Source: Tubulanus polymorphus (lineage: Eukaryota > Animalia > Nemertea). From it: a stretch of DNA of 64,000 nt. The stretch is taken from positions 16,864,110-16,928,109 of the forward strand of contig NC_134030.1 of the NCBI RefSeq assembly GCF_964204645.1, given 5' to 3'. The position numbers and the translations under genes were made by a program. This document shows, piece by piece, positions 4,270-57,349 of this stretch. Position 1 is the stretch's first letter. Every line of letters starts with the position of its first letter. The notes beneath the pieces are model-generated. The model made no database searches, was not told where the DNA came from, and saw only the letters and a list, made by a program, of their open reading frames with translations.

Positions 4270-6019
4270 TGGTGCTGCCTCGTCCATTCGCACCTGCCAG
4301 TATCCTGAAGCGAGATCCATGACAGCGAACCAACGATTACCGGAAAGGGACCGAATAGAATCATCGATACGAAGTAAGGGGTAATTATCAGAGAGTGTAG
4401 CCTCGTTTAAGGCGCGGTAATAAACGCAGAATCGAGTGCTGTCGTCTTTTTTGAGACGAGCACGATCGGGCTACTCCATGGACTGGGATTCCTCTATCAC
4501 TCCGCAATCGATCAAATCTTTCAAAATCTTGTCTACCTCAGCCTCCTTGTGTATCGAGAGGTGACGGAATCGCTGTTTGATAGGGGTCGTATCACCCACT
4601 TCAATTATGCGCTCGGCATCGACAGCCGCGCCCAAGTCGGTGTCGGACTTAGCGAATATATCTGAATACTCAATTAAGAGTTCACGAACTGGGCGGCTCT
4701 GATCCTCGTCTAATTCGGAGCAACTACAATTAACCAAATCGAGCAAGAACTCGGGTACCTGATTATCAGGCGGAGACTCTCACGGAACGGGAGTCTCATT
4801 GATAAGACGGAGTCGTGAGCTCGACATCTCCTCAGGCCAGACGCATTTAACATTATAAATCGTTGCGATGGCCGAGTTCTGAAGTTCGAGAAGTATGCTT
4901 GAATTCATAACGGAGACAGGTATGATATCTCGCGCGGTGTCGACCACGCATCTAGCGACACACAGATCTGGGCCCAGTCTCGGGTTGTTTATTGTTTTCA
5001 ACTAATGCCCATTTCATAAGGTCACTCTTATCTGACACGCTACACGGGACAACCACTTCTGTCAGAGCAGGGATGACCATTCGCTCATTACATCGGACTA
5101 AGTTTTTATTTTCGGACTCGCAGATTTGGTGCCGGCACTCAATTTGTGACCTTGACACACGAGAGTCTTCTGTTACGGGAAGATTTGACAGTCGCATGAC
5201 ATGAGGAAATCCATTATTTACAAACGGTAAGACATTTACTCGAGCATCGGATACATCCGAGTTTCTATTTCTAATTTTTACCTCTCGTAGTGGCGATTCA
5301 GGGAGATTGTTTCTATTCCCAACCAACCTTACTCCCTCGGTGGGGCTGGTCGACGGGAGTTTAAATCATCGGTTTGACGCGGAGGCTGACTACAATTGCG
5401 CGAAATATGACCAGGTTGCCCGATAGCACAAACGAGGTCCTGGAGCCCTACGGTCGGTCATACGAGACATCATCTGGCTCAGAAACTTCTTTTCTCAAGG
5501 ACGCGATTTCATTATTAGGTGTCTTCGACGAGACTATCTGCCTGACGTATGAGTCGGACCGCTCCTTCTCGCGTTCGATCAAGAATATCCCTTCGAGTCG
5601 AAGCGCATGTATCAATGTCTAACTGCCACAGCCGGAGTCTCATCTCAGCGTCGGGCAGTGCCTCGATAAAGTGTGAACGGGCAAGTCTCTCTCGCTTCAC
5701 CGGATCAAAATCGGGATACGCACGGGAGCAGAGAATTACAATGACTTGGCCCAGTTCCTTCAAACTTTCGTTGCGCTTGCGACGACGATTTCTCAACTCC
5801 GCCAAGTGGACTTCGGCTGACTTATTGAGGCCAAAGCGTGCCTCTAATACGTCGCACATGGCGTCATAATCGCGCATCTGGACCGGGGATAGTTTAACGC
5901 AGACTTACTGTCTTGCAGTCCCCCTTAGCTAAGCAAACAGAAAATCTGCCTTCATATCGTCCGGCCAACCTTTAAGGCGGCTCACGGTTTCGAAGCTCAA
6001 CCTGTAGTCCTGCCATGGA
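4270..6019 (-). mobile_element. Ty3/Gypsy LTR retrotransposon, 3' part (gag C-terminal half, degraded protease-region sequence, N-terminal RT); truncated
   Basis: Minus strand gives WQDYRLSFETVSRLKGW...LRGTAR, YDAMCDVLEARFG (gag) and PIKQRFRHL...SPIVLV...LNEATLSDNYPLLRIDD...FAVMDLASGYWQV (RT). Confidence 0.9.
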
Positions 6020-6113
6020 AGTAATTGGGAAAGTAGGCTTTCATACCAGAGGTCGAGCGGTCGAAACACCACTCATCACCACAAGTAATTTTTTTTCCTA
6101 ATAAATGGGGGAG
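6020..6113 (+). repeat. Polinton left TIR (appears internally collapsed)
   Basis: 6020-6089 pairs with 19428-19497; 6069-6113 pairs with ~19111-19154. Confidence 0.9.
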
Positions 6114-9100
6114 AATGAACACCAGCCAGAAAACAATAATGTTAATAAAAATCAATATTATTGCCAATATTGTAAAAAAATACATCGATAAATCCCAAAA
6201 ATCACGACATGAAAAAACTGCAAATCATATAAAAAATGTAATAGATTTTGAAACTCCAGAAAATCCCAATGAAAGAAAAGAAAGATTAGAAAATATGAAT
6301 GTGGATGAAATAAAATGTGAAGTTTGTAATGAATTTATAGTAAAAAGGAATTATAATAGACATCTCGAATCACAAAAACACCGCCAAAATTTGAGTAATA
6401 ATGTTTTAGGAAAATATTATTTTGATGATAAACCTCAACAAGTAAAAAAACCAACTTCAAAAACTAAATCCATTTCAAATAAACCTTACATGGAAAATGT
6501 TAGAAATTATATTGATTCACTAGAAATAAAAGATACAATTGAAATTTTAGAAACATTACATAGTAAAATTGGTCCAGCAGCTATTATATTTAGATTTTTT
6601 AAAGGAACAACAATAGAAGATTATAGTAAATTTAATGAAATAATAGAAAAAATACTAGATTTGATAACAGATGTTGAATATCCAAAAATTAGTATCTCTG
6701 GGAAAGTAAGTTTTATAAAGTCAGAAGAAAAAATGAATTATAATATTCAAACACACTCTGAAGAAATAATTTCAAAAACACAAATAAAAGAGAAGTTAGA
6801 AAAAATATTTAATGAAATTAAACGTCATATTGAAGAAAGATATTTTGAGGGTTCTGGCTTAACATTGAATGAAATTATATATTTAGATTTAAATGTTTAC
6901 AATACAAAAAGGAATAAAACATCAAAAAGTAATAAAATGTTTAAAAATGATTCAAACTTTACAACAGAAAAGGATATTAAAGCATCATCTTATATTAAAT
7001 TACCATTTACAACAAAAGCAGTAATAAATGTTCAAAATGAAGATAATAAATGTTTTCTATGGTCAATTATTAGTTGTTTACACCCAACAGAAGATATGAC
7101 GCATAGTTTTAGAATAACAAATTACCGGAAATATGAAACATTATATAAAATTGATCAATATCCAGTAACTATAAAAATGATTCCTAAAATAGAAAAAGTT
7201 AATAATTTAAAAATAAATGTATTTGAATTAATGCAATTACCAAAGACAAAAGGTGAAAATATTAAAGATTATACATTGGAAGCTTTATATTTAACAGCAT
7301 ATTATGATGATGAAAATGCTATAGATTTGTTATATTACAAAAAAGATGAAAATGAACATTATATGTGGTTAAAACAAATTGATTTATTCTTTAGAACAGA
7401 AAGTGATCACCATAATAAAATGTATCTATGTAGAAAATGTTTATCTTAATTTATGACTGAGAATACATTATTAAAACATAAAGAATTATGTGATAATAAA
7501 GATTTTTGCAAATTAATAATGCCAACAGAAAAAGATTATAAATTGAAATTTACTAATCATAAATTTAAAAATATTGTTCCATTTGTAATTTATGGGGATT
7601 TTGAATCGTTGAATAAAGAATTAACTGATCAAGATAGAAAAGAAATATATAACAAAAAGCAATTATTAAAATCAATGGATAAAGGAAATGAATGAAATGA
7701 AGACATAATACAAGACCCACCAATTATAAATACAATTAAAAAAGTTCATCAAAGAGCTGCTGCTTATGAAATTTATACAAAATCAAATTATCCTGAATTA
7801 TATGAAAGTCAATATATTTCTTTTAGAGGTGAAAATGTAGTTAATGATTTTTGTGATAAAATGATTGAATTAGAAAGTGATTTTGCAAAATTATTAAACA
7901 CAAATAAAAGAATAGTTATGACAAAAGAAGATGAAATTGATTTTAATTATGCAACTCATTGTTGTTATTGTGAAAAACGTTTTTATTCATTTGATAAAAA
8001 AGTTAGAGATCATGATCATTTAAATTCAAAATATCGTGGAGCTGCTCATGAAGATTGCAATTTACAAGCTAAGAAAGTTAATTTCGTACCAATATTATTT
8101 CATAATTTATCAGGCTATGATACCCATCTATTTATAAAACAATTATCGGGAAAATTGGGCGCAATAAATCAAGAAATAGAAGAATATAATGCTATGAATG
8201 GTGTAAATGTAAGAAAATATGATTTTAAATTATTAGCTTAAACATCTGAAAATTATATTTCATTTCAATTTGGTTGCATTAGATTTTTAGATTCTTATAG
8301 ATTTCTAGCAAGTTCATTAGATAATTTATCAGAATTTTAGTTGATAATGATTTTGTTATAACTCGATATTATTATCCAAATGAACAAGATTTTAAATTAT
8401 TGAGATATAAAGGCGCAATTCCTTATTCATTTTATAAAACACACAATGATTTTAATGTAACAGAATTATTAAAAGATCAATTTTATGATCAATTAAAAGA
8501 GGAGTATTTAGAAGTGTTTATGAGAACGAAGTGTTTAATAGAACATTAAATATTTGGAACCATTTTAAGATGAAAAATCATGGCGAATTAGTTGATTTAT
8601 ATTTAAAATCAGACGTTATGATATTGGCGGACATATTTGAAAAATTTAGAGAAGTTAATTTGAATCATTTTAATGTTGATCCTTGTTATTGCTACTCTAG
8701 TCCTGGTTTAACCTGGCAATGTGGTTTAAAATATACAAATGTAGAATTAGATTTATTAAAAGAACCAGGTATGGTTTTATTATTTGAAAAATCAATTAGA
8801 GGTGGAATTAGTGGTGTTATGGGAGATAGGTATTTTAAAGCAAATGATGAATATAAATTATTATATATTGACGCCAATAATTTATATGGTTGGGCAATGA
8901 TGCAACCTCAACCATATAAAAATTATATATTAACAGAAGTTGAAAATGATGATAAAACTAATTGGGAAAGCGCAATTATGAGTTTAGAAGATGAAGCACC
9001 AATTGGTTATTTCTTTGTAGTTGATTTAGAATATCCTGAAAATATTTTATTTATAATATAAGTTTAAAACAAGAAACTTACCTTATTGCCCGGAACATTT

Positions 9101-11194
9101 AACTGTAGATGATAGTTATTTAAGTGAATACCAGAAGAAAATAAAACCGAAAGATCATGTTTTTACAGAAAAATTAATACTTACTCAAAATAATAAATAC
9201 AATTATATTGTTCATTATAGAATGTTAAAATTTTATCTAAAACAAGGAATGAAATTAAAGAAAGTACATAGATATATTGAATTTAATCAATCGAAGTGGT
9301 TAGAAAAATATATAGATTTTAATACTCAACAGAGAACCATATCAAAAACAGATTTTGAAAAAGATTTCTCCAAATTAATGAACAATAGTTTTTATGGTAA
9401 AACATGTGAAAATATTAGAAATAGAAATGATATTGAATTAGTAAATAATTCTGAAAGATTAAGACATTTACAATCAAGTCCTAGACATTTAGGAAATAAA
9501 AGATTTGAAGATTATTTAACAGCAGTTAAATTAAAAAGAACGTCAATGAAATTTAATAAACCTATATTTATTGGTTCAACTGTTTTAGAAGTATCAAAAT
9601 TATTAATGTATGATTTTTATTATAATGTTTTACAACCACTTTTTGGGGAAAAGCATATTGAAATATTATATTTTGATTCTGTAACAGCTGACACCCCAAT
9701 ATTATTAAAATGTAATGATAAAATATTGATAAGAAGAATTTCAGAAATGATTCCAAAACAAAATGAATGTTATATTTCATATGGTGAAAAAGAATTAATA
9801 CAAATAAATGGTTTAATGGATGTTTGGACAAGAAATGGATGGAAAAAATTAAAGAATATTATTAGGCATAAAACAAATAAGAAAATCTATAGAGTTAGAA
9901 ATTAGGATTTGTAGATGTTACAGAAGATCATAGTTTAATTAAACGAAATGGTGATGAAATAAAACCAACTGATATAAAAATTGGAGATGAATTATTACAT
10001 AAAAGATTTTTCCAAAGAATGAATCATATGTCATTTGATGAAATTATTGATAATATTTATGATATAGAACCCGAAACATTAGAAGAAAAAGAATATTTTA
10101 TCAAAGGATTTTTCATGGGTGATGGTTAAGCAGGTGTGTATAATTATGTTTGGGGTAATAAATATTGTTGGTATTTATGCAATCAAGACTTAAAATTATT
10201 AGAAAGAATTAAGAAATTCTGTGAAGAAGTTTATTCACATAAAACATTTAGAATCATGGATCATATGAAATCATCAGCAGTTTATAGAATACTTGTAAAT
10301 AATCCTAAAGATTTTGCTATAAAATATAATGATGAATTCTATATTCATGCAATAGTGAAAAGTAATACTTCAACTAAAGAAAAGATAGTACCAGATTATG
10401 TATTAAATGCCAAAAATAATTTAAGAAAATGGTTCTTTATTGGATTCTACGCAGCAGATGGTGCTAAAAAATTTACAAAGGATATAAAGATAACCTTTGC
10501 ACAGAAAGGAAAAGTTGCTATATCAGGATTGAATATATTATGCAATTCATTAGGTTTTAATATGAATATTGGATTGATTAAATCTAAACCAAATTGCTTT
10601 AATTTAAGCCACACAGAAAAAGATTTAACTGAAGAAGTTAAAGATTTATTTGAAATATAAAACCCAACAGATTATGTTTATGATTTATCAACTGAAGATG
10701 GTACATTTAACTGTGGATTTCCATTAATAGCAGTCAATACGGATGCGTACATACTAAAAATCAAGACAAATGACATAACAAAAGACTTAAAAACATTAAA
10801 ACATCATTTTGATTTTAGCAATTATCCCAAAGATCATGAACTATTTAGCAATGATAATAAAATGATTCCTGGTAAGTTTAAAGATGAATTAGGGGGCGAT
10901 GAAATGATTGAATTTGTTGGGATAAGAAGTAAAATGTATAGTTACAGAACAAAAGATCATGAAGCTAAAAAGTTAAAAGGAATAACAAAACATGTGGTTG
11001 ATAAACATATAGAATTTCAAGATTATATAAAGTGTTTATATAACTCAATTGTAATGAAACATAAAATGAATTGTTTAAGATCAGAAGATCACGAGATGTA
11101 CATTAATGAAGTTGAAAAAACTAGTTTAAATCCATTTGATGATAAAAGACATATTTCAGATGATGGTATAAAAACATTACCTTATGGCCATTAA
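6105..11194 (+). pseudogene. polB: Protein-primed family B DNA polymerase with N-terminal zinc fingers, vOTU-like region, endonuclease VII-like insert and an intein
   Basis: ExoI VIYGDFES, ExoII FHNLSGYD, ExoIII YLKSDV, motif A YIDANNLYGWAM, motif B KLMNNSFYGK, split motif C YFD/TDA, GKFKDE, KMYS, KLKGI; CxxC...DHDHL...RGAAHEDCN insert; several stops and frameshifts. Confidence 0.96.
9678..10738 (+). mobile_element. Intein with LAGLIDADG homing endonuclease in pPolB motif C (degenerate)
   Basis: Block A SVTADTPILL directly after YFD; block B VDVTEDHSL; endonuclease motifs FIKGFFMGDG and FFIGFYAADGA; block F YVYDLSTEDGTF; terminal Asn (LIAVN) followed by +1 Thr (TDA); frameshift near 9900, stops at 10127 and 10658. 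Confidence 0.93.
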
Positions 11195-12420
11195 AACATA
11201 AAATCAATATCATCATACTCGAAATCACTATTGGCTTCTTCATTTTCATTTAATTGTTCTTGTATAATTTGTATAGGTTCTTCCATTTCATTTTTCTCAT
11301 TTAAATAAAGTTCTATCTTGTACCACATTTCATCTCGCTCTCTTTGTTTCTTTTGTTTGTTAATTCGTCAAATGGAATTATAATATCGATGTTTAAATAA
11401 TTTACAATCTTATTTAAAAAGAATTCATAATTAATTGAATCTGTTATTCTATTTTCCAAATGATACATTAATATTTGTTTGAATATTTTTTTTATATTTT
11501 CCATATCTTCTTCTGTTAATTTAGGTTTTTCATAATAATCGTTAAATAATAAATATAAATACATTTTCTTTTGTTTTGTGTTAAATGTTGACGGAATAAT
11601 TGTTTTTATAATATCTTTTTTAGTTATTTCACCATTTTTATTTTCATTTTTTCAAGCCATTGATATATTCTGGTGTATGATCTTCTATAGAAAATATTTT
11701 AAAAATTTCATCTAGATAATTTAATTTTGGATCTATGAGAAAATTTCTAGTTTTTTCTTCACCCCATAAATTCTTTTGCCATCCACAATCAACACAAAAT
11801 AACACAGTACCTTCTTGTCTTAAGGTCGCATAACTACATTGTGGACATTTTCGTTTATAATTTATTGGTAATAGATCTTCATTAAGCTCCTGGTATTTCC
11901 TTACGTTTTCTTTATGTTTTAATGTTCTATTATGTAGATTTGAATTACTTGTTGTAATAATCAATTTACAATAATATGTTTTTCTTGTTAATTCATTGTA
12001 TTGTTTTTCTAACTTTTCAACTGTTTCTTTATTATCTGGTAACATTTTCTCATATTTTATTTTTTCTAATAAACTATTTTTTTCTTTCATTGAATTCAGT
12101 TTCAAATTTATTAGAAATTTTATCTATATGTACTTTACGAAATTGATGATTCTCCCAATCTTCTATATTTTCAGGGCTGTATTTTATTCGACAAGGCTCA
12201 CAGAAATGATCTTTTATATTATCCTTATCATAGAATAAGAAAGGTCTTTTCCAAATAATTTCAGGTTCAACTTCAACAGAATTACTATTACTTTCATTAC
12301 TATCAACATTAGCCGTTGCGCCATTAATTTTACACTTCTCTGAATGTTTTTAACATAATTTCTTAAGAATAACTTATTACATTTTGGGCAGTTTAGTTTA
12401 GGGGGTTTATAATTGGAAAT
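11191..12420 (-). pseudogene. Poxvirus late transcription factor VLTF3/A2-like protein with extra N-terminal Cys/His motifs (frameshifted)
   Basis: CPQC-x13-CVDC, RNFLIDPKLNYLDEIF, LTEEDMENIKKIFKQIL...SINYEFFLNKI and a later DEMW follow, in order, the vaccinia A2 motifs as I recall them (CxxC..CxxC, KLIHL, EIFKHL, INYSFFLDKI, W); stop overlaps the polB stop in TTAA at 11191-11194; 5' end uncertain. Confidence 0.78.
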
Positions 12421-12449
12421 TTAAATACATCATTTGATACACAGAAACA

Positions 12450-12956
12450 ATTCAAAGTTTTATTTAAAGATTCAATTCATAATGATAAAAATAGATCGAT
12501 TCCAGAAAACATTGTATATCATTGTATAGATATCAAAATTATTTAGATAAATCTCATGTAAGACTAAATTATTGTATAGGCCCTAATCTATTAATTATTT
12601 CTAATGATTTAGTACTAAAGATCGGAAACATAATTGGTTACAATAATCTAATTAAAACTGCAACAATAAATAATTCATTTGGATTAAATGATATAAATAA
12701 AAAGATTACCGCTATAAAATTAATGGAAGGTGAAAAAAATAAAAAACATATTCAATCAACAGAAACTAAAACTTAGAATATTAAATTAAATAATGATTCT
12801 AAACCGGATTATAATACATCAGAAAATATTAAAACTGATAATATTCGACATGATATATTTAAAACTGATAATGATAATAAATCCCATGAAAATACTAAAT
12901 TAGCTTTAACTTGTATAGGAATTGTTATAGGAGGAATATTATATTTTAAATTTTAA
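12450..12956 (+). pseudogene. C-terminal half of a conserved Polinton hypothetical protein; 5' part missing
   Basis: YRYQNYLDKSHVRLNYCIGPNLLIISNDLVLKIGNIIGYNNLI followed by a C-terminal hydrophobic tail LALTCIGIVIGGILYF; no start motif upstream. Confidence 0.5.
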
Positions 12957-12972
12957 TTTTTTTATTATATAA

Positions 12973-14386
12973 ATGGATGTAGAAGGTGGAGAAGATATTG
13001 GAATGGATAATTTTGATGAACCTGGCATAACTGATGAACAACAACCTGATTTTAGTGAAACAAGTTATAATGGTGGTAATGAGCCAGGATATAATAAATT
13101 TTAATATGCCTGATTATATTAAAATGCAGAATCACAATTAAATCCTGAAAACTTAGATCCAGATTTAGTAAAACAAGATTTATATAATTTAAACAAAATA
13201 GAGAAATTAGAATATATAATTGAAAATTCGAAACTTAACGTAAATGATGAAGACGTTGGACCTTTAGCAGATAAATTAATTAGATAATGGTAAATGTTAT
13301 TATCGTTTGAAAGGTGATTATCATATTTATATCACTAATCAAAGGACAAAACTAAAAAAATATTAGCGGAATCAACTTTGAAAAATTTAGAAACATTTAG
13401 AATTAAGAGAATAAGTAATAGTAATGAAATAACTGATGTTACACAAAAAGAAATAGATGATAATATAGACGTATTTAAACAAAGAATTAATGAATTATTT
13501 GAAATAATCAAAAAGAAATCAGAAACAGAAACAACTTCTGAACAGAATATAACTTCCAAAACTAGTAAACTTAAATCAAATAAAGTTTCAATTGAAAAAC
13601 TTTTACCGAATGGATTAATTGATGCAACAGATCAAGAATTAGAAGATTTAAATAATATATTTTCTGTTGAAGCAATTAGAGAAATTAAAAGTATAAGACT
13701 TGCATCTGATTAAATTGCGCATGATAAAAGTATGAGATTTTAAAATTAGAACTTTAGAAAAAGAATTAACTGATAAAAATAAAGAAATAGAACAATTAAA
13801 GTCTGTTTTAGATCATCAAGTAATTGATGAAATAGAATATAGGCAAAAAGAATTACGATTAGAATAAGAAATTAATAATTTAAAAGATAATTTAGAAGTA
13901 CAGAAAGAAGAAATTAAATTGTTATTAAAATCATATGATTATAATATTAATAGATTAAAATTTATTTTTAAAGATTTGTTGATAAAACCAAATTCTGAAA
14001 TATCATTGAGAGATAGAATAAAGTTATTATTTAAATTAGAAGGAATAACAATTCTTTCAATTCTAACAGCTGTAACTATGTTATTTACAACAATAGGTTT
14101 AGCAATATCAAATGCTTTGAAATCTACTCCTACTCCCAATAAACCAGATAAACCCCCAGATAATAATTCTATACAAGATGGTTTAAAGAAATTAGCAAAA
14201 TATTTACGGGAACTATCTAAAAAATCTGCTGCAGCTTTACCAGGAATTATTGCATCAATTGTTGGTTTTATATTGAAATCTGCAGGAAACATTATTAACT
14301 TTGCTGCTGAACATATTATTTTATTTTTAATTACAGTTGTAAGTGCTATTATTTTTGGGTTAGTGAATATGATAAAAAATAAATAA
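12973..14386 (+). pseudogene. Polinton coiled-coil protein with C-terminal hydrophobic/amphipathic helices (putative membrane-associated protein)
   Basis: ATG in the ATAAATGG motif; ORF pieces 13378-13713 and 13919-14386 with ITILSILTAVTMLFTTIGLAI and AAAALPGIIASIVGFIL. Confidence 0.65.
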
Positions 14387-14406
14387 TTAATTTTTTTGTT
14401 AAATAA

Positions 14407-15655
14407 ATGGGTGGGAGTGATATAAGTCCTCCTAAGATTTCTAGAATATCTAATGCTATTAAAGCAGAAAGATCACATCATATAATTACACATAATCCTT
14501 CAAATATTAATCCCGATGAAACTTTATATGTTAGAATTCCTAGATTAACACAAAATACTTTTTTATGTTCCAAATAGTATTTATTTATCAGCTGATATAA
14601 AAGTAACTGGTCATGATAATAATTATGTTGTTGATAATGTTGGGAGATATTTGATTAAAAAATTGACTATAAAGATTGGTCCAGAAACAGTTTTCTCATT
14701 AGATGATTATAATTTATTTATGCATTATAAAGATTTATGGTTAACTAAAGAAAATAGAAATAATATGATATTTCAGGGTATTCAATCGGATAACCATAAT
14801 AAATTAAGATCAGGAGCTAATGACGCAATAGTAACTCGTGCCACAGATAATTTGATTAAAAAGATTTATGGAAGCAAATATAAAATTCCATTAGACTTTG
14901 AATTGATAAATAATAATGCACCTTTATATAAATATGTAATTCAAGAAGATATTATATTTGAGATAACATTTGCTCCTGTAAATGAAATTGTATTATCTAG
15001 CGTTGTTAAAGATATGGGTTATAAATTATCAAATATATGTTTAGAATATGACACAGTAACTAATGAAAATATTGCTACCACAATTCAAACTCAATACAAT
15101 CAAGGATTTTCATTATTATATGATTATATTGATAAATTTAAAACTGTAACTATTAATGCAAATCATGAAATAATTAATGAGAATATTAACTTCCCAAGAA
15201 GATCTATTAAAGGTATATTAATATTTTTTACCATTGCAACATATTCTAATGGCGCAATAAAGGTAGATAATTATTATAATCCTGAAATAACAAAAGTAGA
15301 AATAACTATCGAAGGAATAGCAAATAAAATATTTTGTCAAGGAATGAGAATGATAGATCAATGGCCAGAAATTAGAAAACATTTTATGAATGAAAAAGTA
15401 AAATCATTTGAAAATTGTAATATTAATCAAATTGATTATTATACCGGCAATAAATATGCATTATGGTTAGATTTTAGAACAACAGAGGATAATTCATTAC
15501 ATGGTTCTGGGAAAAAACTACAGAACACTAAAGATGGAATACAATTATTTATGAAAAAGAAAAAAGGAAGCTTAAATTTTAAAATGCACATTTATATTAT
15601 ATCTGACGCACAATTAAATATTGTAAATTCACAATTAGATAGTATTCAATATTAG
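14407..15655 (+). pseudogene. Putative major capsid protein (one frameshift near 14560)
   Basis: About 415 codons when joined; HNPSNINPDETLYVRIP, VDNVGRYLIKKLTIKIG, LSNICLEYD, YALWLDFRT; size, apparent beta-rich pattern and position next to INT/ATPase fit a double jelly-roll MCP. Confidence 0.7.
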
Positions 15656-15685
15656 AAATATAAAGTTAAAATTAACGATATATAA

Positions 15686-16809
15686 ATGGGCGGTAAAAAA
15701 ACTCCTAATACTAAAGAACAATATTTAAGAAATTTATATTACAACCCTGAGAGTTCGGTTGCTTATTCTTCTACCAAAAATATATGGCGTCAAGTAAAAC
15801 AAGATAAATTAGATAAGATAATCCCACAAAATTTAGTTAAATATAAAGATATAAATGAATTTATGTTAGAACAACCAACATACACAACGCATAAAAAAAT
15901 TGTTAGAAAATATAAAACTCGTAAAACTATGGTAAGTTATGTAGATCAACAGTGGCAAGGAGATTTAATTGATATGAAAAAAGAAAGATAATAATGATTA
16001 TTGGTGGTTATTGAATATAATTGAAATTTTTAGTCGTTATGTATGGAGTTTCCCACTTTATAGAAAAGATGCTGTACAAACATCAAATGTTTTAAGAAAA
16101 TTTCTTTCGGATGATAAACTAAAACCAGAAAAAAATACAATTTGATGATGGGAAGGAGTTTGATAATTCACTTGTTCGTGAACTCTTAGATAATCATAAT
16201 ATTAAATATTTTTCAACAAAATCGGATAAAAAAGCAGCAGTTGTTGAACGATTTAATAGAACATTAAGAACAAGAATGTGGAAATATTTTACAGCAAATA
16301 ATACTTTTAAATGGATTGATGTTTTACCAAAATTGATAGAAGGATATAAAAATTCTTATCATTCTTCTATTTGAATGAAACCTATTGATGCTAGAAAACC
16401 TGAAAATGCTGAAATTGTTTGGAATAATTTATATGGAGCATTTCTTGTAGATGATTTTGGTGAACCTAAATTTAAAGTTGGTCAAAATGTTAGAATTTCT
16501 AAGTATAAAAAGATATTTGATAAAGGATACGATCGAAATTTTACTAGAGAAATATATAAAATAAAAAAGGTTATAACAACAAAACCATATGTCTATAAAT
16601 TAGAAGATTTAGATAGTGAAGAAGTTGATGGCTACTTTTACGAAGAAGAATTGAGTTTAACTACTGAAAATCTAGAACAAGAATATAAAATTGAAAAAGT
16701 AGTAAAAACAAAAACTATTAAAAGAAAAAAATATTCTTTAGTAAAATGGGTTGGATGGCCAGATAAATTCAATGAATGGATATTATCAAGTAAAATTAAA
16801 AATATATAA
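15686..16809 (+). pseudogene. Retroviral-type (rve) integrase with C-terminal chromodomain
   Basis: QWQGDLIDM, DDGKEF and KAAVVERFNRT (DDE triad); YKIEKV...LVKWVGWPDKFNEWI chromodomain; frameshifts and a stop. Confidence 0.93.
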
Positions 16810-17417
16810 ATGTATAAGGAATTATTTATATTTGAGCCTCATAATATGTTAATTTCTGGCGTAACAAATTGTGGAAAACTTATTTTATATTAAATTTATT
16901 AGAAACTGTTTATGAAAACTATTTTGATAATAAAGTATAATTTTGTCCAACATATGAATTTAATCCAACTCATGATAGAAATATTACTAGAAATAATAAA
17001 TTGATTATATTAGATCCTAAAACAGTAAAAGAAAATTTAGATAATTGTATAAAGATAGCAATTGATATTTATAAAGGATCAAATACATTATTCATTATAG
17101 ATGATTGTGCTAATCTACATGATTCAAAAGTTAGAGAGAGTGAGTTATGCTATTTAGCTTTTTCTGGCAGACATTCTCGGATAACAACTTGGGTTTTAAA
17201 TCAAAAATATAATTCAATTGTTAAAGACTTTAGAGAAAACATTAGATTTCTAGTTTTATTCTACAATAAAGATAGAAAATCGATGAAAAATGCACTTGAG
17301 GAAAATGATATTATTCCACATGATTTACATAATGAATATATGGATAAGTTGAAAAATATTAAAAGATCAAAATTACTATTTAGATTACAACACCCATTTA
17401 AATATGAATTTATTTAA
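16810..17417 (+). pseudogene. A32/FtsK-like genome packaging ATPase
   Basis: Walker A GVTNCGK(T), Walker B LFIIDD, SGRH and LNQ motifs; frameshifted after Walker A. Confidence 0.88.
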
Positions 17418-17419
17418 AT

Positions 17420-17695
17420 TCAACTAGCTCGTTAATCTAGTTGAATTCTAGTTACATTCTAGTTGAATTCTAGTTATTGGTAGTTGGAACAAAAATCAAC
17501 TAGATTTAACAATATTTTAACTAGCTTGTTAATCTAGTTTAATTCTAGTTACATTCTAGTTGAATTCTAGTTATTGGTAGTTGGAACAAAAATCAACTAG
17601 ATTTAACAAGAAATAAACAAAAACAACAATATTTCAACTAGCTTGTTAATCTAGTTGAATTCTAGTTACATTCTAGTTGAATTCTGGTTGCAACA
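17420..17695. repeat. Palindrome-rich tandem repeat (~2.6 copies of a ~100-117-bp unit) inside the Polinton
   Basis: CAACTAGCTTGTTAATCTAGTTGAATTCTAGTTACATTCTAGTTGAATTCT repeated at ~17421, ~17518 and ~17635. Confidence 0.9.
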
Positions 17696-17721
17696 TCACA
17701 ACTAATTTTTTTGTTATATAA

Positions 17722-18327
17722 ATGGTAGGTGAAAAGAAAATAAAATCTAAAAATGGTGATGTTCCAATTGAAAAAACTTTAGATGATTTAGGAATAACAG
17801 AAAACAAATTAATTCCAGATGATGGCGCTTTAAATAATGTTACAACAAATAATAATTATGAATATTATCTTTATTGTAAACATCAATTAGAAATATTAAT
17901 AGCATCTGGAAAATGTAAAAATTTTGTCGGTAAAAATTTCACTTATAATGAATTAGATACAATGAAATCAGATGAAATTATTAGATTATTTAAGATTTAT
18001 GAAGCCGCGAGAACAGCTAGAATTAATGACGCGATATCAGAAAATGTAGTAAAAGGTTATAGTAAATTATGTAATTATATACTACCAATTGAAGATGAAA
18101 ATAGATTATATTCCTTTTTAAAAAATGACTATTTAGTTATGACTGAATTACATAAATGGATTGGATATTTATCATTTCAATTAGGTGGATCTATGACATT
18201 ATTATCAACTGGAGTTTTAACATTTTCAAATATTGAAAGTAAAAATATTTCTATAATAAATGAACAAGGTGGAAGAAGTGAAGGAATTAAATGTGAAGAA
18301 AAAACCGAGATCACAGAAACAAATTGA
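17722..18327 (+). CDS. Polinton hypothetical protein (201 aa)
   Basis: Open ORF starting at the shared AATTTTTTT-N5-ATAAATGG motif. Confidence 0.65.
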   Translation: MVGEKKIKSKNGDVPIEKTLDDLGITENKLIPDDGALNNVTTNNNYEYYLYCKHQLEILIASGKCKNFVGKNFTYNELDTMKSDEIIRLFKIYEAARTARINDAISENVVKGYSKLCNYILPIEDENRLYSFLKNDYLVMTELHKWIGYLSFQLGGSMTLLSTGVLTFSNIESKNISIINEQGGRSEGIKCEEKTEITETN

Positions 18328-18628
18328 ATGGTCTCGGCAATTAGGAATTAAATCACAAGAATATAAAAAAGCTGTAAAAGAAAAAATAAGTAGTAAAAAT
18401 GTTAATAAAAATAGTGAAAATATTGTTATTTCTACTCCTTCTAATGATAGAATATTTGATAAATGTCTATATTTTACAGTTGGATTTGTAATTGTATTCA
18501 TTTTGATTGGGTGTAATTGGTATAAGAAATCAAATAAAATTCATGATATTAATAATTCTGAAACAACTGCTATCAAAAATGAAAATACTTCTGAAATTCC
18601 AAAATTGACAATAAAAAAAATGGATTAA
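18260..18628 (+). CDS. Polinton small protein with one predicted TM helix
   Basis: ATAAATG start; hydrophobic CLYFTVGFVIVFILIGCNW segment. Confidence 0.6.
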   Translation: MNKVEEVKELNVKKKPRSQKQIEWSRQLGIKSQEYKKAVKEKISSKNVNKNSENIVISTPSNDRIFDKCLYFTVGFVIVFILIGCNWYKKSNKIHDINNSETTAIKNENTSEIPKLTIKKMD

Positions 18629-18759
18629 TATTTTAGAAAAAAAAAGCAAAAAAATAATTTTTTTAAATTAATTGAATATTAATTGAATATCCCTCTACTT
18701 TTGTCTATCTATGCGGAGCAATTAAATTGTCCAGATAAGTCATTTCGGATTCTAGATAT

Positions 18760-19118
18760 TCATTATTTTTATTAATTTATTTTTTTAAATTTAATCAACA
18801 ATTTCTAAATCATGATGGCCATCTTCATTTTTTCCATGATAGATTATTTTAAAGCCTTCTAAATCTTTTAATTCCTCTGTACTCAATGAAACCCATTTAT
18901 CAGGTAAAAATACTTAAAATTCTCGCGATGTACTAACATTACAGTAGCTTAAATTAGCTGATACTTTCTCTCCATATTTAGTTTTTATCTTTTCTAATTT
19001 CAATATTTTATGTTCAATTTCTTTTGTAACATCAACTAACTTTTTTATTTCAAATTGTTTTTTTTGCTGGTTTTATTCTGTTATTTATTGTTGCTAAGAA
19101 TGCTTTTCTATCTCCCAT
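18760..19118 (-). pseudogene. Degraded small Polinton ORF(s) initiating at the right-end repeat
   Basis: Minus-strand ATAAATGG starts at 19118 and 18896; broken reading frames. Confidence 0.35.
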
Positions 19119-19497
19119 TTATAAGGAAAACAAATTACTTGTGGTGATGAGTGGGGATTACTTCCCCCTGTATATAACAAACACGCTATTAACCGTTCTC
19201 ACCCAAGCCTCACAGCATCTATTTATCTGGGCACAGTTGACACGCAATCACTGTACTACAGTAATAGCACACGCGTTAATAACCGTTCTCAGTAGAGACT
19301 CACTGTATCGATCTATCCACGCGCAGCTGTTGTTACGCGCACTCACTGTATATGTGTACCACAGAGCAATCGTCCGTTCTCACTAGAGCCTAGCTGTGAT
19401 GAGTGGTGTCTCATACTCAATTGATTTATTACTTGTGGTGATGAGTGGTGTCTCGACTGCTCGACCTCTGGTATGAAAGCCTACTTTCCCAATTACT
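19111..19497 (-). repeat. Polinton right TIR/subterminal region with internal direct repeats
   Basis: GTGATGAGTGG three times (~19144, ~19396, ~19438), CCGTTCTCA three times, CACTGTA three times; ends AATTACT then TSD. Confidence 0.85.
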
Positions 19498-19895
19498 CAT
19501 GGACCATCGCCCGAAAAACTTTCAGGTTTTATATTGCAGGTCGCAAAGTTACGACTTGGTGCAATTGGAATCGGCGTGCCCTTACGAGGAATATCGCGAC
19601 GATCTCTCAATGGAGACATCTCATTTCGGGGCATATTCAAATCTTCAGTACTATGGCTACGCGGACCAAGCGAAGGCGAAGAGGCACGAGTTATCGGACG
19701 GCTCATCTTAACGGATTTTCTTACGCAAAAACTATGAGATAAAGACGGACTATTATAAACCCTATACTCATTCGACAACGTGTAATCGACTTAAACTAAT
19801 TCGTCATGTGATGTTTCTGGGTATTTGATCCGAAACCGAGGCATCCAACCACAAAAAAGAATACATCGCAATAGCCGAGAGGATTATGATAAATC
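19498..19895 (-). mobile_element. Gypsy element 5' part: leader and gag N-terminus, continuous with the sequence ending at 6019 once the Polinton is removed
   Basis: ORF ends NIKPESFSGDGP and joins through the CATGGA TSD to WQDYRLSFETV. Confidence 0.9.
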
Positions 19896-19913
19896 ATCCC
19901 ACCGCTGCCACCA
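19896..19913 (-). promoter_or_regulatory. Primer binding site complementary to the tRNA-Leu 3' end
   Basis: Minus strand TGGTGGCAGCGGTGGGAT, 4 nt from an LTR end (...CGCTACA). Confidence 0.85.
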
Positions 19914-19917
19914 TTTT

Positions 19918-21410
19918 TGTAGCGTAAGGGAGGGGGGAATAAGCGAGCACGCAGCGTCCGCTCCGGTGTCTTCTCGCGACACGAAGTCTCCTCAGGGAAG
20001 TGGGTTTGCACGCTTCCGGTCACTTGGTTCTTCGAGTTCCTCGTGGTAGCATGAACGGCGAGGGGGAAAGTGGACGTCGCTACATAAGTTCGCTGATGTC
20101 GAACGGACTCTTTTAGTATACAATCTAATAACGCGCCCTTGGATGGAACCGGAGCGAAAACGCGACATGACGCTTGATGGAGAACCGGAGTTCGATCGCG
20201 CAACCAAGCGTCGCGAATTCAAGAAATAAAATAGTAACGCGCACTCGGACGGAACAGGGGCGGAAACGCGATAGGACGCTCGCATTTTAGTATACAATCT
20301 AATGCACCCTCGGATGGAACCGGGGCGAAAACGCGACAGGACGCTTGGTGGAGAACCGGAGTTCGATCGCGCAACCAAGCGTCGTGAATTCAAGAAATAA
20401 AATAAAAGCGCCCCCTCGGACGAAACCGGGGCGGAAACGCGATAGGACGCACGCATTTTAGTATAGCTACTAAATTAGGCCCAATCAAAGGAACGGTAAC
20501 TTTAGATGAAAATAACGAGCGAGACCGGTTCAGGACACGGCGACAACTCGTCCACCCATCCGATCTACTCAGGTCAGGGTAAGAGGGAAGACAAGAAGGT
20601 CTGCGACACTGCCGGTCCATCACCGATCGCAATGAATAAGGTACACGGAGAGAATCGAATCTCCACGCGCCTTACCCCAAGAGAGTTCTGAATCAGAATG
20701 AATCCCCCTGGACAAACAATTACAAACGTTAATTAAAGAACTGGGAGACGAGCACCGCAATCGGTTCGGAGCATAGAAATACCAACAATAGGTAACGGAG
20801 ATTCCCCTCGCGAGCGAGACCTCGCAAGGGAAGCCTGAAACATAATATAGATGGCTGCGAACGCAAAATATTACGGAACACGCAATTTTTGTAATGTTGA
20901 AACCATCCACAAATCAATGTAATGCGAATGCGCTGGACTTAGAAAATTCTAAGAGATCCACGAAAATTGGGATTCGAACACGCAAGCACAAGAGTGCTAG
21001 CCTAGCGTTTCCCCCAGCGCTATCGCCGAAGCTGCCAGGACTCGTAACTTTCTAACTACTTATAGCCTCATCCTAACCCTACCCTATTATACTAGCCTAT
21101 GTAACGGAACCTAATCCTAACCCTTACCCTCTGGACCTTCTAGACCCTAAACCCTGGACCCTAAACCCTATCCCTTCTGCTATTCAAAAAGCCGCCATTT
21201 TTTATCTTTCCAATATCACTTCCGTTTTTTGGATGGTTTCAACATTTCCTAAATTGCACGGAACACGGAGTGTAAACTATACGATACAGAAAAAGATAGG
21301 ATTATTTACATAACATATAAAAACAGGTAATACGGGTCGAACAGGTTCTAAAAGAGGGTGGGACGGGAGTTGGACTCTGTAGCAGAAAGGAACCCCGCTG
21401 TTCCGCTACA
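19918..21410 (-). repeat. Gypsy 5' LTR (outer boundary uncertain: 20084 or 21410); internal ~172-bp tandem duplication at 20111-20465
   Basis: TGTAGCG at 19918 adjacent to the PBS; complementary CGCTACA at 20078-20084 and 21404-21410. Confidence 0.55.
20882..21257. mobile_element. Non-autonomous MULE-like element (9-bp TSD)
   Basis: Imperfect ~27-bp TIR GCAATTT...AATGTTGAAACCATCC; TSD ACGGAACAC at 20873-20881 and 21258-21266; internal CCCTAA-like repeats. Confidence 0.85.
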
Positions 21411-21479
21411 GAGGCGGATACTAAGTCCCTCGCCCGCGGCCTACGCCTAGCTCTCGCTAGCCGCGGCCTATAAGCTCTA

Positions 21480-23060
21480 GTTGTAGCAGCCTGATGTGCA
21501 CCTCTTTTGATCGGGAAAGTCGCAGATGTTCGATTTCCTGATTGACAAGATTTTTATCTAGACACAATGATTTTCCAGGTGCACAATCAGCATCTTCAAA
21601 GAAAACAAACATATCTGCTTTCTGCCTCACATTCCCATTCAATTTTCTCATTTCACCATCGAAATATTTTGAAATCTAATCGCTTGGTAGAGTCATATCG
21701 AGATCAGATGTACTAGATGCCAAATCCTTGAAGTGGAGGAAGTGACCATAACAAGTAGGTTTGCAGACAGTAATTTTCGGGTTTCCGTAATGTGTCTTTC
21801 TTAGGCCATGGGAGAAAGGTCAAATCCTGACCACCTATGTACCAGCGATCACCGGCCTGTATTTTTCCAGGGTGAGATTGACAGATAGGACGAGGACAGC
21901 CAACTTTGTAGCAGCATGTGAGTGCAACAACATATTTACAAGTCAACTGCATTTCAGGATTGTCGATTACAGATTCGACACTCGAGAAGTACATAAGTTG
22001 CTCCTTTTCTTTTCCCCTGGCTCAGCTCATTCAATCATTCGTTGTTTATCCTTGGCCTTTAAGTATTCTAAGAGCAGAGGGCGCTGAGCCTGCAATTCAT
22101 CTGCCTTTTCACCACATCATGCGGCAGGGTACATGTACATTGGATGGCCATATACATATAGCCATCGACACGGTTGATAAAAAAACTGAGCCGCTGTAGT
22201 CAGGTTATCTTTCACGAGATTTTCATTGGTTTCCCCCTGACGGGATCCCTGTTTGACCCTAACATTTGCGAAGGAATGAAAATGTTTGCTACAGCTCAGC
22301 CAATTTCTCCATTGAGGCGTTCAATTTCATTCAAATATCTATTGCATGAACATCATGTAGTGACATATGTAGCCAGCTTTCCCCCTTTCATGTGCCATTC
22401 TGCCCATAAAAATCTTGTCTCACTGTGCGAGGGACTTTCATCATTCCCTCCACCAACACGGATGCAATCAATTTTTCGATTCATGTATTCGAAATTGTTT
22501 GAGCTTAGATAAATCAGCCTAGTGTTTGAAAGTTTAGGAGTGACTTTTATGGCTTTAACTACACCTGTATATCTGTCGTTTTTATTGTCGTTAGAAGAGA
22601 AGCAATATGACTGTTCTTTGTTCGTGAAATCCGAATACGTTGCCAAATCCAATTCAGATCTATCCATCAGAGTTTTGTGTCTCAATGCTGTTAAAAAGTG
22701 TATAATCTGTGACCCATTGTGTCATCTCTATTCAAGTACATGATACGCCGCTCATCAGTCCCTTGGAGGTTATCTAATGATTTGTAGAATGAGCTTGACC
22801 ATTTAGCGTCCATATTTAACTTAATATTGAAGCCTTTTCTAGGCCTACGACTGACAATATTTGCCGGACTTTTGTAGCGACTACTTGACCTGTTTCGTCT
22901 GTTTGCGAGCAACACACAGTGATGCCATATTGTCAATCCTGAGTTCTATACAGATGGTTAGCATTTTCAATGAAATTTCTGTAGTACACCTCCGGTAGGG
23001 TTCTGTCAAACAGGTTTTTGATCAATGGAATGGTTTCATCAGTTTAGTAAAAAGGGAAAA
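21480..23060 (-). pseudogene. Degraded transposase-like gene of an unclassified invertebrate family
   Basis: LNMDAKWSSSFYKSLDNLQ, YLNRDD, DCIRVGGGNDESPSHSETRFLW, YLNEIERLNG...NIFIPS: acidic motifs consistent with an RNase H-fold nuclease; many stops. Confidence 0.5.
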
Positions 23061-44435: not shown

Positions 44436-45739
44436 AAATTTTCTAAATTTGAATTATTTCATTGAATAAGTATAACAATGGGCCCATACACATGGATTAT
44501 TTCTTACTTTTACACAAAGAAAATTCATTTTTTGAGCACCCAAAATGCACCAAATTGCTTGCGATATTTGAAAATTTTCCGAAAATTCGAAAAATTGAAT
44601 ATGCCGAAGCTCCGATCGCACCGAAGCACCGAAGTTCCTGCTATACTGAAATATGCCCAACGTTCATTCAAACATCCATCATCGGTGAAAGTATGATTAC
44701 TGTATACATGTACTGCAGGTTTTAATGTTGTATGAATATTTTGCAGTTCAAATGGGTATGATGCTGATTCCAATTTAAAACACATGAAGTTAAATGGTCA
44801 AGGACAGTCAACACCAAGATATCTCTCTTCGACCGATGTTGTACCATAGAAGATATGATTCTTTCAACAAAAGCAAAGTGATTCAACACGATCGACATAA
44901 CACTGGAATAGGTTTGCAGTGAATAACAGTTCATTTCATTTAGTTCTATGTACTTTTTAGCCAATCTGGATTTGATTGTTATTGAAACTCTGGGACTGTT
45001 AACAAGAGACAAGTAAGACAAGTGGAAAAAACACAAGTTATGCTTGATTCTCATATTCAAATTTAATTCGAATGCAAATTTATTCTATTACATCATATTA
45101 CAAAGCATATCATTGGTTCATACAGTAATACAAATTAGGAAAGAACAAATTGTATTATAGAATTTTCAAAAAGGTAATGAATTTCTATAACTAAATGAAC
45201 ATTCTTTTTCTATTACTAAGATCAGGAGTGACTCTCCCGTTTATTAGAAAGAAATGCACGCAGCTGATGGAATAGGTTTGATATTTACACACATGTTGCA
45301 GGTATAAATTGTTTATCAGTATAGAATTTGTAATCCATAAACATCGGCCCGAAACCCAGACCACATCAATTCAGAATTTATTGATTGAATCTACACTATA
45401 GTATATGTACATATTCAAATAATTCAATGAAAAGATTAACTTCTTAAATCTATTCCAAATCATAATACGTTCTTCTCTGTACTAATCATAATTTACTCAG
45501 TCTATCGACTCAGAAGGTGCTTAAGACGAGTTCTTAATAGGACAGGTTAATTTTTTAAGCGTGGTGATAATACAGTATCATGAAGTTTGAATGCCAAAAT
45601 AAATGCCTGGTCGAATAAATTCATATTTGTTGATTTTACGTCCGTGTATGTTCGGTTTCAAAGATGATTCACATTTGACGTGTACATAGCTGTTGCATAT
45701 TAGGTTCGAATCTGTCGATGCATTTTATTCTATGTATCG

Positions 45740-48600: not shown

Positions 48601-48726
48601 CCGGGAGAAGAAAGACCTGTGGCTGAAGAAAGGGCGAAAATTGCTGCGAGACAGAAAACACCTCACCGGTTAAACTCTCTGCTCTCCAGCCAACTTAACG
48701 TTTTTCTCTGTTTTTTAGCTACCAAA

Positions 48727-50722
48727 ATGTCTGACGTGCTCCAGTTGGATACGTTGAATGAGATATGAACCCGAGATCTAATGAAAGCTGTTGTGCATGA
48801 TGTGCGGAGATAAGTACAAAGCTACACAAAGAGGACTGAGCCTGAATGGACACCGGACTTCAGCGCTCTGATAAGTTCTTGTGAGGCCCACTTATACCAG
48901 CAAGGTTACATGGTTGCGGGGTCGATAGTCGCTGGCGTCAAGGCTTTCCTGGCGTCAGCCAAGCGTTCACGGCCATACATGTCGTTGGGACGGTTTAATC
49001 GGCTGGGGACAGAACTCGGCTATTTGATATCCCAACATGGGGGTACGAGTTTACGCCTCGAAGATGAGCTGGAGAAGCTTAAACGGCAGCTTCGTCCAAT
49101 TCTCCTGTTGAGCGACTCGATGTTTAAAGGAGTCAAGTGCAGCGGTATGGCTTGTATGTAATCGCTCACTCAGGACATCGAGTTGAAGACGTAAGCCGGA
49201 CGATAAGACTGATGAGCGTCAGTTGCTCTGCTGTCGTCGTTAACCACGGGGTAAACAACGCGCGGGAATTCAGTGACACTGTCAAGGAGATATACTCCTT
49301 AGCAAACATGATACGGCAGAAGTATCCACTTGTCCCGATTTTCCACCTTCCCGTTCCAAAGGCCCCATGTATGCGAGGCAAGCGTGAGACGGTCATCCCG
49401 ATTGACCGTATCAATCTACACTTCGAGAAAGCTGAGTTCAGCACCATCGAACATCCATATCTCGAAGACCATGGCTACAGAGGGCGGTGTTGTCATATCG
49501 CGGAAAGACGGAATCGCGGAATTTTCCAAAAACGCGGAATTTCTTCATTTTTACTATAAATAGTAAACAGGTTTTCCCACGGGGATACCCACTGTCGGAC
49601 AGGGCACCGGACCCAGGTTTTCAACACCGGGAATTAGTATTTGATAATTTATTATATCACCAGTCAACAACTTAACGATACTGTTCCAAATAATGGAGAA
49701 CCTAGGCAATACGTGCTTTGCGAATTCAGTGATACAGAGTATCGCTGCATTAACTGAAGGAATACAAATCGATGGTACGTAAACGTAGGATTTGTGATGA
49801 CACCATGGGTCATTCTCAAGGACTCACTTCCGAGTTAAGATTTGACTCTGATCTCTGGATTTAAAACATTGGAAATGAATTGATTCTAAGTAACTCAGAG
49901 TTAACTCACAACTGTGGAACTGGATCGATGTCAGACGAAAATAAATAGACATTATGTTTATTTCATTCTGGTTTAAGATTGTTCATGCGTGTTGTGTGTC
50001 TACATTGTTGTTATAAGCGAAGAATGTGGTTTATCTTTTAGAATTAAATGATATGAAAGATTATAAAATGGTTTCGTTTTTTTTAATTTTTACTTTGTGA
50101 GTGCTATAACATATATGTTCCTATGCTGATTATTTGGATCAAAAGAATTTTATTGGTACCGGTACTGGACGGCCGTAAAATTATAATAATTTCAAAGGAA
50201 TTTGAACCGGTACTTGTTCGGTCGTAGGATTTCATGTTTGCAACCATCTACAACTACGGTCCGACACCGCGAACGTGCTCAATATTTATCTGATAATATT
50301 CGTTTCTGAAGTTCTCAAAAAGTCGATGAACTTCGATAACCGAAGTTTGCCTAGTAGAAATAGACATTAGGTGCCTGGTCTCTTTCACCTCACTTGATTC
50401 TGACTTCTTCTACAGGTGGCAGCCAGTCAACGGTATCGTAATATAATAATTCCATATAAAATTGCCTGCAAATAATGGGATTCGAACCTAAGTCGTTGCA
50501 TCGATCAGTCCGGTGCCCTGTCCGACAGTGGGTATTCCCGTGGGAAAACCTGTTTACTATTTAAAGTAAAAATAAAGAAATTCCGCGTTTTTGGAAAATT
50601 CCGCGATTCCGTCTTTCCGCGATATGACAACACCATACAGAGGGATCCATTATCGACCGAAGGCAGTCAACGAAGTAGTTCGTCATGTTATTGCCTCCGT
50701 CAAGAGTCATCTAGAGTCCTAA
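48727..50722 (+). pseudogene. SGNH/GDSL hydrolase-like ORF between pol and the 3' LTR, split by a MULE-like insertion
   Basis: Block I LLLSDSMFKGV, block II HSGHRVED, block III VNHGVNN; after removing 49485-50644 the frame reads EDHGYRGIHYRPKA (block V His) to a TAA near 50722. Confidence 0.65.
49485..50635. mobile_element. Non-autonomous MULE-like element with ~125-bp TIRs
   Basis: TIR GGTGTTGTCATATCGCGGAAAGACGG...; 9-bp TSD TACAGAGGG at 49476-49484 and 50636-50644. Confidence 0.9.
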
Positions 50723-57181: not shown

Positions 57182-57349
57182 ACGCCGTTGTAGTGGTTGA
57201 AATCACAATATCCATCAAATTACCATGGATGAACTGTCTCAGTTACTTTATTTTTTTTTGTATTTTATACGTACAGTGTATATTAGTTTTAGTTTTGTTA
57301 TTTTATTCAATGATGCTGAAAATTAAGATTAGCCAACAATATCATCGAT

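Follow-up and report, generated by a model that had tools for sequence, protein, structure and literature searches.

How does an intein come to lie in the catalytic motif of a transposon-borne DNA polymerase in animal-type DNA, and by what means is it kept there? The question is raised by a stretch of 64,000 nucleotides filed under Tubulanus polymorphus (contig NC_134030.1, positions 16,864,110 to 16,928,109 of the forward strand), which in its full length is here called the window. In it, a Polinton/Maverick element encodes a protein-primed family B DNA polymerase (pPolB), the motif C of which is interrupted by an insert at 9678..10738. An initial annotation had taken this insert for a homing-endonuclease intein at the pol-c site, brought in by a co-infecting large DNA virus. 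That a pol-c-type LAGLIDADG intein resides in a Polinton protein-primed polymerase in animal-type DNA is supported by the present analysis, while the circumstances of its arrival appear in a different light. We consider it probable, with good confidence, that Polintons possess a pol-c LAGLIDADG intein clade of their own, likely acquired in a single event from a giant virus and probably kept by splicing and by homing between Polinton copies.

Anatomy of the insert

The insert, on the plus strand, is 1,061 bp long and gives 354 residues when it is read through with X at its breaks. It divides motif C at D|T: the upstream part of the polymerase ends in ...ILYFD, the insert runs from SVTADTP... 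to ...GFPLIAVN, and the polymerase resumes with TDAY.... The N-extein (6105..9677, plus strand) belongs to a protein-primed family B polymerase with an EndoVII-like insert (Pfam DNA_pol_B_2, E 1.5e-7; Endonuclease_7, E 0.0026) and matches the intein-free polymerase P0235 at 60-75% in tblastn. The C-extein (10739..11194, plus strand), the first residue of which is the +1 Thr of motif C (TDA), is 74-80% identical to P0235-P0237. When the flanks of the site are aligned with P0235, the N-extein ends at residue 1187 and the C-extein starts at residue 1188, with 77-78% identity and no gap. The alignment is likewise gapless for the intein-free polymerases P0236, P0237, P0229 and P0230, and 113 of 120 relatives align across the site.

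The insert has Ser at its first position, a block B TxxH motif (DVTEDH), a block F with its Asp (VYDLST), a terminal Asn, and two LAGLIDADG-type motifs, GFFMGDG and GFYAADG. The residues S1, T82/H85, D149, D261, D336 and N354 are invariant in 11 of 11 aligned inteins, D149 and D261 being the two LAGLIDADG aspartates, and the +1 residue is Thr. A penultimate His is common, but not universal, among inteins; this position is Val in the window, His in seven of ten complete relatives, Lys in two of them and Ser in one, and Lys in the Mimivirus intein.

The window copy is broken by a frameshift near 9897-9901 and by stops at 10127 and 10658, and the polymerase gene outside the intein has three stops and three frame changes. 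This copy is dead, polymerase and intein alike having decayed after insertion. Its profile scores are weak (Pfam LAGLIDADG_3, E 2e-4; Intein_splicing, E 2.7e-4; TIGR01445, E 3.3e-4), and all of them fall below the curated cut-offs. Unbroken relatives pass: P0002 reaches 37.7 bits for Intein_splicing (PF14890) against a cut-off of 35.8, P0002, P0005 and P0109 score 32-35 bits for TIGR01445 against a cut-off of 24.5, and P0001, P0002, P0007, P0008 and P0108 lie above the cut-off for LAGLIDADG_3. The initial annotation had read from the letters a motif C split at D|T, a frameshift and two stops, intein blocks B and F, a terminal Asn and two LAGLIDADG-like motifs, all of which are found where it placed them; it had also named a failed Hint-domain search or a discontinuous flank alignment as grounds for giving up the intein diagnosis, and the outcome of both comparisons leaves that diagnosis standing.

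With the insert as query, 73 proteins were returned. Of the best 12, 10 are protein-primed polymerases that carry such an insert at the identical position. The closest relative of the window intein, P0001, is unbroken and 62-63% identical. The fold was modelled for the relative P0109 and not for the window copy. Prediction from a single sequence had a local distance difference test score (pLDDT) of 33, and prediction from an alignment of 74 rows one of 92, with a predicted template-modelling score (pTM) of 0.90. In Foldseek the latter model matches the inteins TliVMA (7QSU, the best match, E 7e-17), PhoVMA, PI-PfuI and PI-SceI, with E values from 7e-17 to 1e-11, and the fold also matches I-DmoI. 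The only sequence matches in the PDB are the two halves of the Nanoarchaeum split pol-c intein (E 0.004 and 0.07). All matches in the ESM Atlas are below 0.9; the best, at 0.87, are Nucleocytoviricota PolB/intein clusters, to be taken as a lead only. The insert is a class 1 pol-c-type intein with a two-motif LAGLIDADG homing-endonuclease domain, which in the model of P0109 is enclosed by a Hint fold.

Other identities were considered and rejected. A spliceosomal or group I intron is at odds with an insert that is protein-coding and open in relatives, and a Hedgehog-type Hint domain with one that is internal, has exteins on both sides and contains an endonuclease. The gaps that suggested mini-inteins in P0448 and P0509 are a duplication and a low-complexity insert.

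Alleles, distribution and descent

Sequencing reads show copies that lack the breaks of the window copy at single sites, and an empty allele. Four runs of one study, under the label organism A, contain more than half of the words sampled and may be those from which the assembly was made; no RNA run was listed. A small share of the marine metagenome run X5 covers scattered pieces only and was not used. Run X6 belongs to a second study with the same species label; with about 12 in 100 of this run mapped to 9000-11400, 6,012 reads were obtained. At the two stops 238 of 239 and 175 of 181 reads differ from the window copy, and at the frameshift 163 of 212 do so; as the reads are 150 bases long, these counts hold per site and not per whole copy. 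The three breaks of the intein belong to the window copy. Forty reads join across the site as F-D-T-D-S-Y, which is the empty allele, and their codons after the site differ from those of the window copy. The empty target site that the initial annotation had proposed must be amended in this respect, since the observed empty alleles encode T-D-S and not the T-D-A of the window copy; among 15 of 25 joints in X6 there is no exact-skip joint with the flank of the window copy itself. Within the intein the reads reach a mean depth of 211, as against 397 for the bins on either side, a ratio of 0.53. From this follows that the family is multicopy and that roughly half of the related copies carry the intein.

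Among polymerases at large the intein is rare and patchy. Besides the window it occurs in 12 clusters at 90% identity (P0001-P0009, P0012, and the partial P0132 and P0315), ten of which are seen complete. It is present in 4 of the 118 nearest polymerases that cover the site. The top 150 representatives at 50% identity include 128 polymerases, a single one of which has the intein, though clustering can hide carriers there. The cluster of P0002 lies on contigs up to 1 Mb, and among the 15 of its 136 members that are listed, seven bear the intein, six are empty and two do not cover the site. In NCBI, P0006 is assigned to the metagenome-assembled genome (MAG) of a bacterial symbiont from a clam, an assignment that may reflect co-assembled host DNA. 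The search of viral contigs with P0001 gave nothing among 57 candidate stretches, and the DNA pattern had 0 matches in prokaryote genomes.

Type II topoisomerases (P0013, which has two copies, and P0051-P0053) also contain members of this intein family, inserted at DQD|T and EGD|S. The family thus seems able to move to new targets of the form D|T or D|S in enzymes that are not related to one another. Giant-virus-like PolB inteins with 24-40% identity to the query occur on contigs filed under archaeal or bacterial MAGs (L058, L059 and L060-L064), which are probably mis-binned viral contigs.

Within Polintons, intein and polymerase have diverged to the same degree. Over 10 sequences, with identities from about 40% to 86%, the identities of inteins and exteins are correlated with a Mantel r of 0.95 (p 0.0001), and the GC content of the window intein, 25.2%, equals that of its exteins, 25.0%. 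The intein is therefore an old resident of Polintons. On an extein tree of 52 rows, for which the empty polymerases were thinned from 117 to 40 and P0007 was omitted, the presence of the intein requires 9 changes, compared with a mean of 10.9 after shuffling, and empty sister rows stand beside most carriers. Between lineages the endonuclease domain is 46% conserved and the N-terminal splicing part 50%.

P0007 departs from this parallel divergence. Its intein is 42-50% identical to the others and sister to the window lineage (98/89), while its polymerase is only 18-23% identical to theirs, a pattern that points to an apparent jump of the intein between polymerase classes. P0007 is a protein-primed polymerase far removed from the others, with the intein likewise at motif C; an insert in it looks VSR-like by eye, so that it is presumably of the pPolB2 type of Jeong et al.

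Within the P0002 family, alleles with and without the intein agree to about 98% over some 1,190 residues, and 12-13 of the 19-26 differences between allele types fall within -7..+44 of the site (p < 1e-9). Such a patch is the pattern expected from co-conversion in homing, or from escape by empty alleles. P0091 and P0094, one with the intein and one without, have identical flanks beside the site. Empty alleles in which the motif after the site is other than TDS make up 55 of 72 in the P0002/P0003/P0004 lineage, compared with 2 of 45 outside this lineage and, among the broad representatives, 1 of 127, the rows not being independent. The 72 empty polymerases of this lineage (in the range P0241-P0334) include 29 with YMD|CDS, 17 with YMD|TDS, 6 with YID|TDA and 6 with YID|TDG. 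This variation is possibly target-site escape, in rows that are related and may stem from few genomes.

The nearest relatives outside Polintons are the PolB inteins of giant viruses, with 36-41% identity, compared with 24-29% for long archaeal matches. The Polinton inteins form one clade, with support 100/99 in one tree and 100/100 in a tree rooted on archaea, and in four intein trees, the outgroup of which was made up of inteins from topoisomerases or from archaeal pol-c sites, this clade lies among the RNA-primed PolB inteins of giant-virus type. The RNA-primed PolB rows of these trees were thinned from 74 to 23, 10 of 39 archaeal inteins were used, and the long branches P0063, P0064, P0186 and L009 and the partial P0132 were left out. 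In approximately unbiased (AU) tests a position of the Polinton clade as sister to the giant-virus inteins is not rejected (p 0.195 and p 0.259). A C-terminal motif that the Polinton inteins have in common with one giant-virus-type group was found at 57 loci, 56 of them with a giant-virus-type PolB, and 13 of 15 viral contigs with this motif are named GVMAG. Giant viruses gave 809 matches to the pol-c allele, and phages a single weak one (27%). Judged from these relationships, a giant-virus donor is favoured.

The element and its surroundings

The element occupies 6020..19497 (13,478 bp) and has the hallmarks of a Polinton: AG...CT termini, terminal inverted repeats of 70 nt (6020..6089 on the plus strand and 19428..19497 on the minus strand) with 2 mismatches in 70, and an exact 6-bp target-site duplication, the left copy of which (6014..6019) is identical to the right (19498..19503). 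Its GC content is about 24%, as against 33-47% in the neighbouring flanks. The gene that holds the intein is one of an endogenous virus or transposon and not of the host.

Downstream of the polymerase, on the same strand, lie a major-capsid-like gene that has a start motif and is broken near its start (14407..15655; weak match to Pfam Capsid_N, E 0.01), a broken gene for a retroviral-type integrase with a C-terminal chromodomain (15686..16809; Pfam Chromo, E 1e-4) and a broken gene for an A32-like packaging ATPase (16810..17417; Pfam Pox_A32, E 2e-7). Polymerase and ATPase exceed the Pfam cut-offs; the integrase is recognised by its chromodomain and by integrase-like motifs read by eye, its gene having no match to Pfam rve. 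In the open reading frames and read-through frames that were scanned, a part of the frames of the element, no Pfam match to a maturation protease was found, a gene that is often absent or lost.

A motif of the form TAAT, T-run, TAAATG stands at four gene starts, those of polymerase and capsid included (6089-6107, 12957-12975, 14391-14409 and 17706-17724). Shuffled sequences hold 1.2 on average, and 4 of 300 shuffles reach as many as the four observed. TAAATG is similar to the late promoter of poxviruses, and the motif would fit contact with a large DNA virus. Between the ATPase gene and the next gene, at 17419-17729, 11-nt units are arrayed in three 97-nt blocks.

The Polinton is seemingly nested, as judged by eye, in a GC-richer element resembling a long-terminal-repeat retrotransposon (4500-6013 and 19504-21500), the scanned reading frames of which have no Pfam match. 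Farther off, a Gypsy-type reverse transcriptase, RNase H and integrase lie at 45700-48800, a BEL/Pao retrotransposon split by a DDE_Tnp_4 (Harbinger-like) transposase at 53500-61300, and fragments of THAP, HECT and P2RX7_C elsewhere in the window. The flanks hold BEL/Pao domains (Peptidase_A17, DUF1759 and DUF5641), THAP and P2RX7_C in a transposon-rich setting. BEL/Pao, THAP and P2RX7_C domains are markers of animal DNA, and the transposon content is a strong argument for an animal host of the window.

Explanations and known systems

How could the intein persist in the favoured reading, in which it is an old Polinton resident of likely giant-virus origin? In unbroken copies, Ser1, the residues of blocks B and F, the terminal Asn and the +1 Thr would excise the intein and rejoin the polymerase at its catalytic aspartates, so that each active copy would depend on splicing. 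The freed endonuclease would cut motif C of intein-free polymerase genes, and repair from an intein-bearing copy would transfer the intein together with short flanks, whether from one chromosomal copy to another or among linear genomes during replication. In a multicopy element empty targets are always at hand, and this would account for the conservation of the endonuclease. More tentatively, and with somewhat less than an even chance of being right in full, one may picture a giant-virus-derived homing intein that is active in the Polintons of the animal germ line, makes their replication dependent on splicing, drives itself from copy to copy, has jumped between two polymerase classes and has forced escape changes in the catalytic motif on its host families.

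Several points weigh against the favoured account. Splicing and cutting are predictions from sequence, and in the window, as in 3 of 10 complete relatives, another residue stands in place of the penultimate His. An animal host has been argued for the window only, and not for nearly all other carriers. The jump to a distant polymerase class concerns one protein, P0007. The patch of differences in the P0002 family has no direction, being compatible with co-conversion and with escape by empty alleles, and the family of P0091 and P0094 shows no such patch at the protein level. The AU tests permit the Polinton inteins to be sister to, instead of nested in, those of giant viruses. Finally, the codivergence of intein and polymerase fits also vertical descent with repeated loss.

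This last point leads to an account with one old gain and vertical descent only, in which splicing persists, homing has ceased and empty alleles have arisen by repeated precise loss. It would account for intein and extein identities that track each other almost one to one and for P0091 and P0094, which near the site differ by the intein alone, and the pattern of presence, taken by itself, suits gain and loss alike. We nevertheless regard it as decidedly improbable: an unused nuclease is not expected to retain invariant LAGLIDADG aspartates and a conservation near that of the splicing part, the differences between alleles cluster at the site, P0007 requires a jump between polymerase classes, and an intein present in one of 128 representatives would require very many losses. 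Homing may also be real and the source something other than a giant virus, either an unsampled common donor or transfer in the reverse direction. The AU tests allow this, the trees fix no single sister group, and in the archaea-rooted tree the support for nesting is unstarred (94/95). Yet 0 of 200 bootstrap trees group the giant-virus rows without the Polinton clade, the C-terminal motif leads to giant-virus-type PolB at nearly every locus, and giant viruses hold by far the greater diversity of the allele, phages having given a single weak match, so that a source of this kind is unlikely.

The origin given by the initial annotation, a capture from a large virus, is upheld as to the nearest non-Polinton relatives, which are giant-virus PolB inteins, and left short as to the direction of transfer, on which the AU tests do not decide. 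A recent, direct and one-off capture by the window element from a co-infecting virus would also have giant-virus pol-c inteins as nearest relatives outside Polintons, but it is refuted by the Polinton clade: the Polinton relatives are 40-62% identical and any giant-virus intein at most 41%, and the GC contents of intein and exteins are equal. The intein is an old resident of a whole group of Polinton polymerases, polymorphic within families, and we give recent capture next to no credence. Hardly better placed, and very improbable, is an assignment to non-animal DNA, whether that of a co-occupying protist or fungus or that of a free virus wrongly joined in assembly. The window has no identified host gene of fixed taxonomy, which would suit it, but the target duplication is perfect at both ends of the element, the flanks hold domains that mark animal DNA, and another study under this species label also has the family at high depth. 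With the favoured reading retained, protein splicing and homing are, as far as residues and alleles can tell, likely in animal Polinton elements.

The main texts of two surveys mark out what had been known of inteins in eukaryotes. Green et al. 2018 place them in fungi (VMA1/Prp8), algal plastids and large DNA viruses (PMC5784728); PMC10710043 adds Anaeramoeba and viral-like polymerase inteins in algal genomes, and its text mentions neither animals nor Polintons. In the text of PMC8529194 the lack of inteins in metazoan genomes serves as an argument for intein-directed drugs. The consulted parts of PMC12220804, PMC3671162, PMC13768754 and bioRxiv 10.64898/2026.10.13.758929 treat inteins or homing endonucleases in general terms only, and the words intein, Hint and LAGLIDADG are absent from the main text of Starrett et al. 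(PMC8502044). Searches of the full-text literature, supplements, Repbase and InBase aside, brought up no report of a Hint-domain intein in a Polinton or in a protein-primed polymerase. As far as this literature goes, the combination is undescribed: the intein allele is known, while the class of its host protein and its place in animal-type nuclear DNA are new.

The range of the pol-c allele is hereby extended from RNA-primed to protein-primed polymerases, and a complete intein family stands in animal-type nuclear DNA, against the view of reviews such as PMC8529194 in the text cited above, though in an endogenous virus-like element. It forms a record of genetic exchange that linked giant viruses with Polintons. 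Multicopy families hold alleles with and without the intein side by side, so that homing and escape of the target site can be tested within single genomes, and the intein family may supply inteins and LAGLIDADG nucleases that function in animal cells.

Among known systems, the HNH and VSR inserts of Polinton pPolB2 (Jeong et al. 2023, PMC10748475; Krupovic et al. 2024, PMC11161782) resemble the present case in that nuclease domains lie within Polinton polymerases. The main text of Jeong et al. describes HNH and VSR inserts and lacks the words intein, Hint and LAGLIDADG, while one sentence in that of Krupovic et al., citing Jeong et al., suggests 'intein invasions' as the source of nuclease inserts in Polinton polymerases. 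Neither main text mentions a Hint or a LAGLIDADG domain, whereas here a complete Hint and LAGLIDADG intein occupies the catalytic motif, and the one-sentence speculation thereby gains real support. The alignments of Jeong et al., with 20,702 pPolB1 sequences, may hold intein-bearing rows. The eukaryotic nuclear inteins in the texts of PMC5784728 and PMC10710043 are similar in lying in nuclear DNA, some of them in viral-like polymerases, with viruses proposed as vectors; they differ in that none of them comes from an animal or a Polinton. Among viruses of animals, iridoviruses are known to have inteins, which however are not integrated. Archaeal pol-c inteins, among them the Nanoarchaeum equitans split Pol intein (PDB 5OXX), have the allele site and the junction chemistry in common with the Polinton inteins, from which they differ as a distant outgroup, and in the text of Ogata et al. 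2005 (PMC549080) the Nanoarchaeum site is equated with the pol-c site of Mimivirus. A close parallel in build, described in this text, is the Mimivirus APMV Pol intein, with the same D|T site (there YGD|TDS), Ser1, terminal Asn, +1 Thr and LAGLIDADG domain and, again, no penultimate His; this intein (P0206) is 37% identical to that of P0002. The Polinton inteins differ from it in their host protein, which is the protein-primed polymerase of an integrating element with many nuclear copies.
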